Source: Escherichia coli O127:H6 str. E2348/69 (GTDB lineage Bacteria; Pseudomonadota; Gammaproteobacteria; Enterobacterales; Enterobacteriaceae). From it: a stretch of 64,000 nt of DNA. The notes under the pieces are model-generated. The model searched no databases, was not told the origin of the DNA, and was given only the letters and a program-made list of their open reading frames with translations. The position numbers and the translations under genes were made by a program. Every line of letters starts with the position of its first letter. Position 1 is the first letter of the stretch. The DNA is taken from NCBI RefSeq assembly GCF_000026545.1, contig NC_011601.1; one strand, 5' to 3'. Shown piece by piece: positions 20,744 to 44,484 of this stretch.

Positions 20744-20871
20744 GACGAGGTTCCATTATGGTTACAGAAGGGAAGTCCGCTATCAGGGTAACGGGAGATT
20801 TACAAAATTCCAACTATTACTGATGAAAACGCAGGCTGTTTTTGCAAGACGTGAGATTGCTCTGGAAGGCA

Positions 20872-20926: not shown

Positions 20927-21997
20927 TTAGAACTGGTAAACGATACCCACAGCAACTGTATCGTCGGAACCTACGCCCAACTTGTTGTCAGAATCGATTT
21001 GGTTAATCGCATAGTCAACATAGGTAGACATGTTTTTGTTGAAGTAGTAGGTTGCGCCCACTTCAATGTAGTTCACCAGATCAACATCACCGATACCTTC
21101 TACATCTTTCGCTTTAGATTTGGTATAGGCGATGGACGGACGCAGACCGAAGTCGAACTGGTATTGCGCAACTAACAGGATATCTTGCGTTTTGTTGGCA
21201 AAGCCACCAGTGATCGGCGTAGCATTACGGGTTTCACCGTAGTTAGCTGCCAGATAGATGTTGTTAGCATCATACTTCAGGCCAGTAGCCCACTGTTCAG
21301 CTTTTTTGCCTTTGCCAAGGGTAGAGTCTTCCTGCAGGTTGGTACGGTCAGCGGCGCCATAAGCACCAACGATACCAAAGCCTTCGAATTCGTAGCTGAC
21401 AGAGCCGCCAACACCGTCGCCGTTAGAACGACGTGCAGTGTCACGCTCGTTTTTACCCAGGTACTGAACAGCGAAATTCAGACCGTCAACCAGACCAAAG
21501 AAGTTGGAGTTACGGTAAGTTGCAACGCCGCCAACACGACCTACGAAGAAGTCATCGCTGTAAGCGGTATCACCACCAAACTCAGGCAGCATATCGGTAT
21601 AACCCAGGGCATCATAAACCACGCCGTAGTTACGACCATAATCGAAAGAACCCGCATCAGCGAATTTCAGACCAGCAAATGCCAGACGCGTTTTATTGCC
21701 ATTCTGAGCATCATCACCTTCAGAGTTATTACCCTGGAAGTTGTATTCCCACTGACCGTAGCCAGTCAGATCGGAGTTAATCTGAGTTTCCCCTTTAAAA
21801 CCAAGACGGGCATAGGTCTTATCGCCATTGCCACCGTAACTGTTTTCACCATTACCCTTGGAGAAATAATGCAAACCGACAGCTTTACCGTATAGATCCA
21901 GTTTGTTGCCATCTTTGTTATAGATTTCCGCAGCGTTTGCGGTACCTGCTACCAACAGAGCAGGGACGACCACTGCCAGAATATTGCGCTTCATCAT
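20927..21997 (-). CDS. ompF: Outer membrane porin OmpF (356-aa precursor; allele appears divergent from K-12)
   Basis: Signal peptide [22 protein letters not shown], mature [10 protein letters not shown]..., C-terminal VAVGIVYQF; 356 aa versus recalled 362 aa for K-12. Confidence 0.95.
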
Positions 21998-28249: not shown

Positions 28250-28261
28250 TACTTTTGAGCC

Positions 28262-28453
28262 AAAATGCCGGATGCGACGCTTGACGCGTCTTATCAGGCC
28301 TACAAGTCCGTTGAAAATGCTGGTTTTGTAGGCTGGATAAGGCGTTCACGCCGCATCCGGCAGCCGTGCCCAAATGCCTGATGCGACGCTTGACGCGTCT
28401 TATCAGGCCTACAATCCGTTGAAACTGCTGGTTTTGTGTGCCACATCCGGCAT
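28262..28453. repeat. REP/BIME-type repetitive extragenic palindromic cluster (two tandem copies of a composite unit)
   Basis: Near-identical blocks gatgcgacgcttgacgcgtcttatcaggcctacaa at 28270-28305 and 28379-28414, each followed by ccgttgaaa(a/-)tgctggttttgt; internal inverted REP ggctggataaggcgttcacgccgcatccggcag. Confidence 0.75.
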
Positions 28454-28454
28454 A

Positions 28455-32691: not shown

Positions 32692-32927
32692 ACTCTCTCC
32701 TTATAACCAATTGTTCTTTTTTTGTTAACATTGATAACAATTCGGTCAGTCTGACAGAGGGCGTCCGCGAGTCGAAATGATTTATCTGAGGAAGAAAAGC
32801 CAAAAAAAGCATAAAAAAAGCGCAATAAGAAAACGTTTGCTATTTATTGCCGCAGGTCAATTCCCTTTTGGTCCGAACTCGCACATAATACGCCCCCGGT
32901 TTGCACACCGGGAATCCAGGAGAGTTC

Positions 32928-33938
32928 ATGTACTACCCCTTCGTTCGTAAAGCCCTTTTCCAGCTCGATCCAGAGCGCGCTCATGAGTTTACTTTTCAGC
33001 AATTACGCCGTATTACCGGAACGCCGTTTGAAGCACTGGTGCGGCAGAAAGTGCCTGCGAAACCTGTTAACTGCATGGGCCTGACGTTTAAAAATCCGCT
33101 TGGTCTGGCAGCCGGTCTTGATAAAGACGGGGAGTGCATTGACGCGTTAGGCGCGATGGGATTTGGATCGATCGAGATCGGTACCGTCACGCCACGTCCC
33201 CAGCCAGGTAATGACAAGCCGCGTCTCTTTCGTCTGGTAGATGCCGAAGGTTTGATCAACCGTATGGGCTTTAATAATCTTGGCGTTGATAACCTCGTAG
33301 AGAACGTAAAAAAAGCCCATTACGACGGCGTTCTGGGTATTAACATCGGCAAAAATAAAGATACGCCGGTGGAGCAGGGTAAAGATGACTATCTGATTTG
33401 TATGGAAAAAATCTATGCCTATGCGGGATATATCGCCATCAATATTTCATCGCCAAATACCCCAGGATTACGCACACTGCAATATGGTGAAGCGCTGGAT
33501 GATCTCTTAACTGCGATTAAAAATAAACAAAATGATTTGCAAGTGATGCACCATAAATATGTGCCGATCGCAGTGAAGATCGCGCCGGATCTTTCTGAAG
33601 AAGAATTGATCCAGGTTGCCGATAGTTTAGTTCGCCATAATATTGATGGCGTTATTGCAACCAATACCACACTCGATCGTTCTCTGGTTCAGGGAATGAA
33701 AAATTGCGATCAAACCGGTGGCTTAAGTGGTCGTCCGCTTCAGTTAAAAAGCACCGAAATTATTCGCCGCTTGTCACAGGAATTAAACGGACGCTTGCCG
33801 ATTATTGGTGTTGGCGGCATTGACTCGGTTATCGCTGCGCGTGAAAAGATTGCTGCGGGTGCCTCACTGGTGCAAATTTATTCTGGTTTTATTTTTAAAG
33901 GTCCGCCGCTGATTAAAGAAATCGTTACCCATATCTAA
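32928..33938 (+). CDS. pyrD: Dihydroorotate dehydrogenase (quinone) PyrD (336 aa)
   Basis: ORF-track entry starts at 32901; ATG at 32928 gives [22 protein letters not shown]-terminus and 336 aa. Confidence 0.95.
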
Positions 33939-41272: not shown

Positions 41273-42913
41273 ATGGAATCTAATAATGGGGAAGCCAAAA
41301 TCCAGAAAGTGAAGAACTGGTCTCCCGTGTGGATATTTCCTATCGTCACGGCGCTCATTGGGGCCTGGGTTCTTTTTTATCATTACAGCCATCAGGGACC
41401 GGAAGTGACCCTGATCACCGCGAATGCGGAAGGAATTGAAGGTGGCAAAACCACCATTAAAAGCCGTAGCGTTGACGTCGGCGTGGTTGAAAGCGCCACA
41501 CTGGCTGATGATTTGACGCACGTTGAAATCAAAGCGCGGCTGAATTCCGGTATGGAAAAATTGCTGCATAAAGATACCGTCTTTTGGGTGGTGAAACCGC
41601 AGATTGGTCGAGAAGGGATTAGCGGCCTGGGAACGCTACTGTCTGGGGTTTATATCGAACTGCAGCCAGGCGCGAAAGGCAGCAAAATGGATAAATACGA
41701 TTTGCTGGACTCGCCACCGTTGGCCCCGCCTGATGCGAAAGGTATCCGTGTGCTTCTCGATAGCAAAAAAGCCGGGCAGCTCTCGCCAGGAGATCCGGTG
41801 CTGTTCCGTGGCTATCGGGTAGGTTCGGTTGAAACCAGCACTTTCGATACGCAAAAACGCAATATCAGCTATCAACTGTTCATCAATGCACCTTATGACC
41901 GACTGGTGACCAGCAATGTTCGTTTCTGGAAAGATAGTGGCATTGCGGTTGATCTGACGTCAGCGGGAATGCGTGTGGAGATGGGCTCATTGACAACGCT
42001 GCTTAGTGGCGGTGTCAGCTTTGATGTGCCGGAAGGTCTGGATTTAGGGCAGCCAGTGGCACCGAAAACAGCTTTCGTTTTGTATGATGATCAGAAGAGC
42101 ATTCAGGATTCGTTGTACACCGATCACATTGATTATCTGATGTTCTTTAAAGATTCGGTACGCGGTCTGCAACCGGGAGCTCCGGTAGAATTCCGGGGTA
42201 TTCGCCTGGGTACCGTAAGCAAAGTGCCATTCTTTGCGCCGAATATGCGTCAGACATTTAACGATGATTACCGTATTCCGGTACTGATTCGTATCGAGCC
42301 AGAGCGGCTGAAAATGCAGCTTGGCGAAAATGCGGATGTTGTTGAGCACCTTGGCGAATTGTTGAAACGTGGTTTACGCGGATCGCTGAAAACCGGAAAC
42401 CTGGTCACTGGCGCACTGTATGTTGATCTCGATTTCTATCCAAATACGCCTGCAATAACCGGTATTCGTGAATTTAATGGTTATCAGATTATCCCGACCG
42501 TCAGCGGCGGCCTGGCGCAAATCCAGCAACGACTGATGGAAGCGTTGGATAAGATCAACAAACTGCCACTGAATCCGATGATTGAACAGGCAACCAGTAC
42601 GCTTTCTGAAAGTCAGCGCACAATGAAAAACCTGCAAACGACGCTGGATAGCATGAACAAGATCCTTGCCAGCCAGTCGATGCAGCAGTTACCGACGGAT
42701 ATGCAGTCAACGTTGCGTGAATTGAATCGCAGCATGCAGGGCTTCCAGCCTGGTTCCGCAGCCTACAACAAGATGGTGGCGGATATGCAGCGCCTTGATC
42801 AGGTGTTGCGAGAACTGCAACCGGTGCTGAAAACGCTCAACGAGAAGAGTAACGCGCTGGTATTTGAAGCGAAGGACAAAAAAGATCCAGAGCCGAAGAG
42901 GGCGAAACAATGA
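41273..42913 (+). CDS. pqiB: MCE-domain envelope-spanning protein PqiB (546 aa)
   Basis: ORF-track entry starts at 41213; ATG at 41273 gives MESNNGEAKIQKVKNWSPVWIFPIV (546 aa); overlaps pqiC (ATGA). Confidence 0.9.
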   Translation: MESNNGEAKIQKVKNWSPVWIFPIVTALIGAWVLFYHYSHQGPEVTLITANAEGIEGGKTTIKSRSVDVGVVESATLADDLTHVEIKARLNSGMEKLLHKDTVFWVVKPQIGREGISGLGTLLSGVYIELQPGAKGSKMDKYDLLDSPPLAPPDAKGIRVLLDSKKAGQLSPGDPVLFRGYRVGSVETSTFDTQKRNISYQLFINAPYDRLVTSNVRFWKDSGIAVDLTSAGMRVEMGSLTTLLSGGVSFDVPEGLDLGQPVAPKTAFVLYDDQKSIQDSLYTDHIDYLMFFKDSVRGLQPGAPVEFRGIRLGTVSKVPFFAPNMRQTFNDDYRIPVLIRIEPERLKMQLGENADVVEHLGELLKRGLRGSLKTGNLVTGALYVDLDFYPNTPAITGIREFNGYQIIPTVSGGLAQIQQRLMEALDKINKLPLNPMIEQATSTLSESQRTMKNLQTTLDSMNKILASQSMQQLPTDMQSTLRELNRSMQGFQPGSAAYNKMVADMQRLDQVLRELQPVLKTLNEKSNALVFEAKDKKDPEPKRAKQ

Positions 42914-43473
42914 AAAAGTGGCTAGTGACGATTGCGGCACTCTGGCTGGCCGGATGCAGCTCCGGCGAAATTAATAAAAACTATTACCAGTTACCTGTGG
43001 TGCAGAGCGGTACACAAAGCACCGCCAGCCAGGGTAATCGCCTGTTATGGGTTGAGCAGGTCGCTGTTCCTGACTATCTGGCGGGGAATGGTGTGGTTTA
43101 TCAAACCAGTGATGTGAAGTATGTGATTGCCAACAACAACCTGTGGGCCAGCCCGTTGGATCAACAGTTGCGCAACACCCTGGTTGCCAACCTGAGTACG
43201 CAACTGCCCGGCTGGGTGGTTGCCTCCCAGCCTCTGGGAAGCGCCCAGGACACGCTCAATGTTACCGTCACGGAGTTTAACGGTCGCTATGATGGCAAGG
43301 TCATTGTCAGTGGTGAGTGGCTGTTGAACCACCAGGGACAACTGATCAAACGTCCGTTCCGTCTGGAAGGAGTGCAAACTCAGGATGGTTACGATGAGAT
43401 GGTTAAAGTGCTGGCCAGTGTCTGGAGTCAGGAAGCCGCTTCTATTGCGCAAGAGATAAAGCGTCTACCTTAA
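42910..43473 (+). CDS. pqiC: Outer-membrane lipoprotein PqiC (YmbA, 187 aa)
   Basis: 187-aa ORF with lipobox LAGCSS after the signal peptide. Confidence 0.85.
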   Translation: MKKWLVTIAALWLAGCSSGEINKNYYQLPVVQSGTQSTASQGNRLLWVEQVAVPDYLAGNGVVYQTSDVKYVIANNNLWASPLDQQLRNTLVANLSTQLPGWVVASQPLGSAQDTLNVTVTEFNGRYDGKVIVSGEWLLNHQGQLIKRPFRLEGVQTQDGYDEMVKVLASVWSQEAASIAQEIKRLP

Positions 43474-43495
43474 TCATAAAGATTTGTAAATATAA

Positions 43496-43529
43496 CCGTC
43501 TCCGGTATGTTGCCTGAGGCGGTTTTTTT
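43496..43529 (+). terminator. Rho-independent terminator after pqiC
   Basis: Hairpin ccgtctccggtatgttgcctgaggcgg (43496-43522) followed by ttttttt. Confidence 0.65.
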
Positions 43530-43728
43530 GTTTCTAACGTGCGGAAAAAGTTGTTCCTCTTCACATTTTTTGTACAACCGACATGCCCGTGTAGTTCACA
43601 AATATGACAGTGGCGTGAATTTTGCGCATTGACGGCAGTTATGATTCGCGGTATTGCTTAACTGTGATTGCATATTTAGTAATCACTGTTTTCTTTTCCA
43701 CCAGAAACCAGTATGAGGGAAACGAGGC

Positions 43729-43896
43729 ATGAAGAGACAAAAACGAGATCGCCTGGAACGGGCACATCAACGTGGTTATCAGGCCGGCATCGCCGGACGC
43801 TCAAAAGAAATGTGTCCCTATCAGACGCTGAATCAAAGGTCACAATGGCTGGGAGGCTGGCGAGAAGCCATGGCGGACAGGGTAGTAATGGCCTGA
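43729..43896 (+). CDS. rmf: Ribosome modulation factor Rmf (55 aa)
   Basis: Hand-translated: MKRQKRDRLERAHQRGYQAGIAGRSKEMCPYQTLNQRSQWLGGWREAMADRVVMA; below the 60-aa ORF-track threshold; the track instead shows a spurious 65-aa ORF in another frame. Confidence 0.9.
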   Translation: MKRQKRDRLERAHQRGYQAGIAGRSKEMCPYQTLNQRSQWLGGWREAMADRVVMA

Positions 43897-43914
43897 TTCT
43901 GTCTCTTTAAAAAG

Positions 43915-43937
43915 AAACCTCCGCATTGCGGAGGTTT
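43915..43937. terminator. Bidirectional rho-independent terminator between convergent rmf and fabA
   Basis: Hairpin aaacctccgcattgcggaggttt with T-rich flank on the fabA side (ttaaaaag upstream on +) and cgccttt on the rmf side. Confidence 0.65.
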
Positions 43938-43965
43938 CGCCTTTATATACTCTGTCTGATTAAAA

Positions 43966-44484
43966 TCAGAATGCAGACGTATCCTGGAACAGACCTACTT
44001 TCAGGTCGTTGGCGGTATAGATCAAACGACCATCAACCAGCACTTCGCCATCAGCTAGGCCCATAATCAGACGACGGTTAACTATGCGTTTAAAGTGAAT
44101 ACGATAGGTCACTTTTTTCGCCGTCGGCAGCACCTGGCCTGTGAATTTCACTTCACCTACGCCCAGCGCGCGACCTTTACCTTCGCCGCCCAGCCAGCCG
44201 AGGTAGAACCCTACCAGCTGCCACATTGCGTCCAGGCCCAGGCATCCCGGCATAACCGGATCGCCGATAAAGTGGCATCCGAAGAACCACAGATCCGGAT
44301 TGATATCCAGCTCTGCTTCAACATACCCTTTGTCGAAGTTACCACCCGTTTCGGTCATTTTGACCACACGGTCCATCATCAGCATGTTTGGTGCTGGCAA
44401 TTGCGGGCCTTTAGCGCCAAACAGTTCACCGCGACCAGAGGCAAGAAGGTCTTCTTTTGTATAGGATTCGCGTTTATCTACCAT
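43966..44484 (-). CDS. fabA: 3-hydroxydecanoyl-ACP dehydratase/isomerase FabA (172 aa)
   Basis: ORF-track entry extends to 44682; ATG at 44484 (minus) gives [23 protein letters not shown]; active-site region [13 protein letters not shown]. Confidence 0.95.

Follow-up and report, generated by a model that had tools for sequence, protein, structure and literature searches.

The small gene rmf of Escherichia coli E2348/69 and a conserved hairpin at the 5' end of its mRNA

Background

In Escherichia coli K-12, slowing growth leads to the production of ribosome modulation factor (Rmf), which binds to the 30S ribosomal subunit, its residues R3 and K5 contacting helix 28 of the 16S rRNA and its R45 contacting C1536 in the anti-Shine-Dalgarno. 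This binding alters the conformation of the 30S subunit, leading two 70S ribosomes to join by their 30S subunits in an inactive 100S dimer, which is then stabilised by HPF; after a nutrient upshift the dimers come apart again within about a minute. The formation of 100S dimers in stationary phase has been established experimentally with the K-12 protein (PMC8126665, PMC8778775), which is identical to the one encoded in the strain considered here. Transcription of rmf is turned on in starvation as ppGpp and cAMP-CRP go up (PMC8778775), translation of Rmf is tuned by polyamines by way of an unusually placed SD (PMC7177335), and the stationary-phase half-life of the mRNA is about 24 min (PMC8778775). 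Its decay has been tied in published work to 3' polyadenylation, not to the 5' end. The roles of rmf in ribosome hibernation, stress survival and antibiotic tolerance are important and already established, and the gene, far from being new, is among the best-characterised small genes of E. coli.

Structured RNA at the 5' end of an mRNA has been described in two settings that bear on this locus. One is the 'rmf RNA motif' of Rfam, described upstream of the rmf genes of Pseudomonas. The other is the 5' UTR of ompA, the classic example of a 5'-terminal stem-loop that stabilises its mRNA, reportedly since the work of Emory, Bouvet and Belasco in 1992.

Identity of the gene and its protein

The DNA analysed here (the window) is a stretch of 64,000 nucleotides from E. 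coli O127:H6 strain E2348/69; it corresponds base for base to NZ_LT827011.1 960001-1024000. On the plus strand, positions 43729..43896 (168 bases, 55 codons plus a TGA stop) translate to MKRQKRDRLERAHQRGYQAGIAGRSKEMCPYQTLNQRSQWLGGWREAMADRVVMA. All 55 of the residues are identical to those of PDB chains 6H4N_v and 4V8G_AV, 'Ribosome modulation factor' (E = 2.7e-34), and the same 55/55 identity is seen with the Rmf chains of the hibernating-ribosome structures 6H58 and 9IOT. The protein is a member of Pfam family PF04957, with a score of 79.6 bits against a cutoff of 27.9, and of the NCBIfam equivalog NF011162, with 92.1 bits against a cutoff of 40. Residues R3, K5, R11, G16, G23, C29, P30, W40, G43, W44 and R45, which mutagenesis has identified as required either for binding to the ribosome or for dimerisation (PMC8126665), are all in place when the translation is set against the list in that paper.

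The protein has the signature common to the Rmf/CrpP-fold relatives (G-x-x-A-G, C-P-Y and W-x-x-G-W) and matches the NCBIfam model Rmf_CrpP_fam at 51 bits, but it does not reach the cutoff for Rmf_like_phage (24 vs 40) or for CrpP_fam (20 vs 55). Together with the equivalog score of 92 bits, this identifies it as Rmf proper. RefSeq likewise places rmf (WP_000828648.1, 'ribosome modulation factor') at 1003729..1003896 of the record, which is 43729..43896 of the window, with pqiC upstream at 42910..43473 (+) and fabA convergent downstream at 43966..44484 (-).

The K-12 locus (b0953) is the same in all respects of functional note. Its protein is 55/55 identical, its coding sequence does not differ by a single nucleotide, and its neighbours are again pqiC and fabA. 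The pqiC-fabA spacer is colinear in the two strains over 492 nt, with 8 substitutions, none of them in the coding sequence, and no indels; one of them, at 43673, where K-12 has C and the window has T, changes a loop base of the leader hairpin discussed below. Within this spacer, given the colinear alignment with no indel, the window coordinate is the K-12 coordinate minus 971986.

An earlier note on this DNA, made from the letters and a list of open reading frames, had recognised Rmf by hand translation and had staked that reading on an alignment; the translation does match Rmf. It had also held that the gene was absent from the ORF track because its 55 codons fell under a 60-aa cutoff, and that a 65-aa ORF in another plus-strand frame, 43713..43910, was reported in its place. 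A mechanical ORF list bears out both points, since it contains the ATG-initiated ORF 43729..43896 as well as the 65-aa ORF, which does pass the cutoff. With the translation, the profile matches, the RefSeq annotation and the orthologue frames described below all in agreement, it is as good as certain that 43729..43896 (+) is rmf, the gene for ribosome modulation factor, and that it is missing from the ORF track purely through the 60-aa cutoff; nothing speaks against the identity of the gene. A fixed cutoff of 60 codons can conceal real, well-studied genes and put a longer out-of-frame artefact in their place. This window holds one such case, and no second one was found in it.

Promoter, transcript and terminator

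SMRT-Cappable-seq of K-12 yielded one full-length primary transcript for b0953, at K-12 1015649-1015926 (PMC6131387 supplement). Mapped to the window, it runs from 43663 to 43940, 278 nt, and is monocistronic for rmf. The transcription start site in these SMRT-Cappable-seq data (PMC6131387) is 43663 (+), 66 nt before the ATG, while PMC6134199 puts the rmf promoter at -58 from the ATG, or window position 43671, 8 nt away from 43663. A start at 43671 would take away the 5' arm of the hairpin at 43664-43686 that is described below.

No sigma-70-like site was found by a consensus promoter scan of 43440-44000, which missed the weak -10 element, and the promoter was therefore placed from the published start site. 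The putative -10 hexamer, TATTGC, lies at 43652..43657 (+), with the start site 6 nt downstream, and the putative -35 hexamer, TTGACG, at 43629..43634 (+), separated from the -10 by a spacer of 17 bp and 29 nt upstream of the start site. The -10 is weak in that its last position is not T; an AT-rich discriminator, TTAAC, comes next. TATT is conserved in the leader alignments, as is the TTGA of the -35 across 37 Enterobacterales leaders. Directly upstream of the -35 there is a block, 43600-43628 (AAATATGACAGTGGCGTGAATTTTGCGCA), that is conserved from Escherichia to Yersinia and Dickeya and that is presumably an activator site for CRP or another factor. A by-eye reading of the block for a CRP site gave no convincing match to TGTGA-N6-TCACA.

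At the other end of the transcript, a hairpin scan detected on both strands a stem at 43914..43938, of 11 bp with 7 G-C pairs. Term-seq has reported 3' ends at K-12 1015926/27 (+) and 1015897 (-) (PMC7815308 supplement), which in the window are 43940/41 for the rmf mRNA and 43911, a very strong end, for fabA. These flank the hairpin, and the presence of 3' ends on both sides of it identifies it as a bidirectional terminator serving the convergent genes rmf (+) and fabA (-). It is an intrinsic terminator; its plus-strand tail (GCCUUUAU) is poor in U. The stem is kept in Pluralibacter, Brenneria, Yersinia and Hafnia, where its variants are compensatory. A further Term-seq 3' end, reproducible and seen in two conditions, lies inside the rmf coding sequence, 44 nt in, at 43773 (K-12 1015759).

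The 5'-terminal hairpin of the rmf mRNA

The rmf mRNA begins almost directly with an RNA hairpin, 43664..43686 (+), which starts at transcript position +2 and has 8 bp and a loop of 7 nt. Its 5' arm contains GTGATTGC. The hairpin belongs to the single-sequence MFE fold, and RNAalifold, unaided, recovers 7 of its 8 pairs. When 33 Enterobacterales leaders are aligned, 93.3% of the cells are paired and compensatory changes are seen at 5 of the 8 pairs, as in Hafnia, with GTAGTAGC...GCTACTAC. Values as high as those observed were reached by 0-1 of 500 column shuffles, and in a control in which the partner was slid by 1-3 columns the pairing came to 16-69%. The frequency of G-U pairs in the hairpin indicates an RNA structure on the plus strand, not a palindrome in the DNA. 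The hairpin also has two of the features expected of the stabiliser class, in that its pairing is under selection and that it lies near the primary 5' end, given the start site at 43663, with which the -58 of PMC6134199 conflicts.

In the Rfam search, no leader family matched in 43474-43965 even at E <= 10 (17 hits), and the sequence ahead of rmf at 11 loci, drawn from seven further genera, likewise gave no Rfam family. The enterobacterial rmf leader, which gave no match in this covariance-model search, is not a member of the Rfam rmf motif, though like that motif it is structured RNA lying in the 5' UTR of rmf. With the stabilisers of the ompA type it has in common a stable hairpin that starts no more than two bases from the 5' end and an mRNA that is long-lived; unlike them, the control of rmf decay has been reported to go through 3' polyadenylation.

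By this analogy, the hairpin 43664-43686 may be an ompA-like 5'-terminal protective stem-loop that helps to explain the long life of the rmf mRNA, a reading that fits both the 24-min half-life and the dependence of decay on 3' polyadenylation. The covarying hairpin at the 5' end and the terminator hairpin at the 3' end would then shield the mRNA from decay that depends on its ends. A bolder version of this proposal, which we put forward tentatively and consider rather doubtful as a whole, is that the hairpin is an undescribed cis-element of Enterobacterales which, with the nearly tail-less 3' terminator hairpin, seals the 278-nt transcript and is the main reason for its lifetime of about 24 min and for its 3'-polyadenylation-dependent decay. 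In the literature surveyed, no experiment linking the hairpin 43664-43686 to rmf mRNA stability was found. The hairpin fits a known principle, and it may already have been described. The conserved hairpin at the 5' end is a small lead on how a stress mRNA gains an unusually long life.

A different role has to be weighed, in that a simple scan finds the hairpin terminator-like -- a stem of 8 bp followed by TGTTTTCTTT -- and the U-rich tract after it is highly conserved. The hairpin 43664..43686 and its U-rich tail might on these grounds be a transcription attenuator, causing premature termination of rmf or of read-through from pqiABC, rather than a stabiliser. However, the stem has 3 G-C pairs only, and with the start site one base ahead of it the hairpin would form as soon as about 25 nt have been transcribed; pqiABC, for its part, has a terminator-like hairpin of its own at 43509-43523. 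Term-seq in three conditions gave no 3' end in K-12 1015600-1015699, though it did report the terminators of rmf and fabA, and an attenuator at this place is unlikely.

Less probable again is that the inverted repeat 43664..43686 is a DNA site at the promoter for a dimeric transcription factor, not an RNA structure, as might be thought from the half-site-like look of its GTGA...TCAC arms and from the many transcription factors that bind a 256-bp rmf promoter probe in vitro (PMC6134199). The arm sequences, however, vary in a compensatory way rather than staying fixed as a motif, and G-U is found in 24 sequences at one pair and in 6 each at two others; these are pairs in RNA but mismatches in a DNA palindrome. 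The gap from TGTGA to TCAC, moreover, is 14 nt, unlike the 6-nt spacing of the CRP consensus, and we regard a protein-binding role for the repeat as highly improbable. A protective RNA stem-loop continues to be the reading that we prefer for the hairpin.

Translation-initiation region

Between the hairpin and the coding sequence lies the structured translation-initiation region, 43687..43728 (+), which is the target of polyamine control (PMC7177335). It contains SD1, GAGGG, at 43716-43720 (+) and SD2, GAGG, at 43724-43727 (+), which are located 11 nt and 2 nt upstream of the AUG, respectively; its structure, from -1 to -41, has been probed by NMR (PMC7177335). In the leader alignment the region from -41 to -1 is almost invariant within the Enterobacterales. 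For a predicted helix that pairs UUCC (43696-99) with GGAA in SD1, the columns are invariant or show changes on one side, with no compensatory change.

Selection on the rmf reading frame

A degenerate DNA pattern covering the invariant motifs C-P-Y and W-x-G-G-W was run against a single genome of each species and yielded 115 distinct rmf orthologues, nearly all from Enterobacterales, Vibrionales, Alteromonadales and Aeromonadales. The rmf frame is open in all 115. The frame of the 65-aa ORF, 43713..43910 (+), is open in 20 of the 115 and has a stop already in Citrobacter, at 94-96% identity over the coding sequence; that of a 55-aa antisense ORF, 43676..43843 (-), is open in 22 of the 115. Profile searches gave no Pfam or NCBIfam match for the 65-aa ORF and no Pfam match for the antisense ORF, and neither is a gene.

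The same is seen in the distribution of substitutions among 36 orthologues of identical length, where the number of variable columns at rmf codon positions 1, 2 and 3 is 27, 20 and 51 of 55, and the summed entropy is 22.6, 11.8 and 61.3. This concentration at the third position means that selection acts on the rmf frame, which is under purifying selection across the Gammaproteobacteria. In the frame of the 65-aa ORF, third codon positions fall on the rmf position that varies least, and the first would be the one to vary most, which is not how a coding sequence behaves.

Although the 65-aa ORF is longer than rmf, starts with ATG and has that ATG (43713-43715, -16 from the rmf start) kept in most Enterobacterales, the idea that it is the real gene, or a second and overlapping one, at the rmf locus can be set aside with near certainty, since it is without any family match and without an SD-like motif ahead of its ATG, its frame is interrupted in 95 of the 115 orthologues, Citrobacter included, the codon-position pattern is compatible with the rmf frame alone, and the conservation of its ATG follows from its abutting SD1 (AUGAGGG) in the functionally studied initiation region.

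Conservation of the locus and rmf paralogues

Of 5426 complete E. coli genomes, 5425 match a 1-kb query around the site, and the match in E2348/69 is 100% identical. In this collection, four of the matches to the rmf region fall in plasmid-labelled records, and some genomes have the region in two places. The convergent order of rmf and fabA is kept in 82 of 99 gammaproteobacterial loci that extend far enough downstream; in 31 of 102 loci, all of them from Enterobacterales, rmf is preceded by pqiC.

Two rmf paralogues, on different contigs, occur in Colwellia (L027/L028, L037/L038 and L056/L057), in Thalassotalea (L090/L091) and in an Alteromonadaceae MAG (L074/L075); in the pairs whose flanks could be read, one copy has a convergent fabA and the other does not. 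In the alphaproteobacterium Roseovarius amoyensis, an ORF of 65 aa (L061:7778-7976) has C-P-Y and W-L-G-G-W, without the basic N-terminus of Rmf, and from its sequence it may be a relative with the Rmf/CrpP fold beyond the Gammaproteobacteria. Two matches in Firmicutes MAGs (L026 and L045) contain no ORF and look like chance matches to the pattern.

Other small genes in the window

The earlier note had warned that other genes under 60 aa might be missed in the same way, while finding none by inspection, and the RefSeq annotation, the curated K-12 annotation and a sweep of intergenic ORFs all come to the same answer. The RefSeq annotation of this sequence has no CDS shorter than 60 aa besides rmf, ycaR having exactly 60, and for the syntenic region of K-12 the curated annotation, experimentally found small proteins included, has rmf alone under 60 aa. 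Intergenic sequence in the window amounts to 5,601 nt in 40 segments. Start and stop codons that enclose 15-59 aa, with 80% or more of the length intergenic, make 168 combinations. An ATG together with an SD-like motif is present in two of these, one of 21 aa at 20758..20823 (+) and one of 16 aa at 60056..60106 (-). When its upstream sequence is inspected, rmf itself passes this filter.

The 72 intergenic ORFs of 20-59 aa that are the longest for their stop gave no Pfam match at E <= 0.01. Marginal NCBIfam matches to SecE (E = 0.0027) and to EspK/GogB (E = 0.0084) are at the level of chance for 72 queries and were rejected; Rmf, as a positive control in the same NCBIfam run, was found at 1.4e-26. 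Apart from rmf, no small gene in the window is annotated or, among the intergenic ORFs of 20-59 aa, matches a family.

Other differences from K-12 in the window

The spacer between ssuE and pyrD, 32692-32927, is 236 nt long where K-12 has the elfADCG-ycbUVF fimbrial operon of roughly 7 kb, which means that this operon is absent from this EPEC strain. The pepN-ssuB spacer, 28250-28454, is 205 nt vs 42 nt in K-12 and contains, at 28331-28409, a match to the Rfam family naRNA4, a REP-type repeat. Other spacers are shorter than in K-12, namely gloC-aspC, with 49 vs 221 nt, and ycbX-rlmL, with 97 vs 243 nt. The coding sequence of ompF, 20927-21997, has 1071 nt vs 1089 nt in K-12, or six codons fewer. 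A match of 97.9 bits to the Rfam PyrD leader, a known regulatory element, is found at 32860-32933, upstream of the pyrD start and overlapping it.
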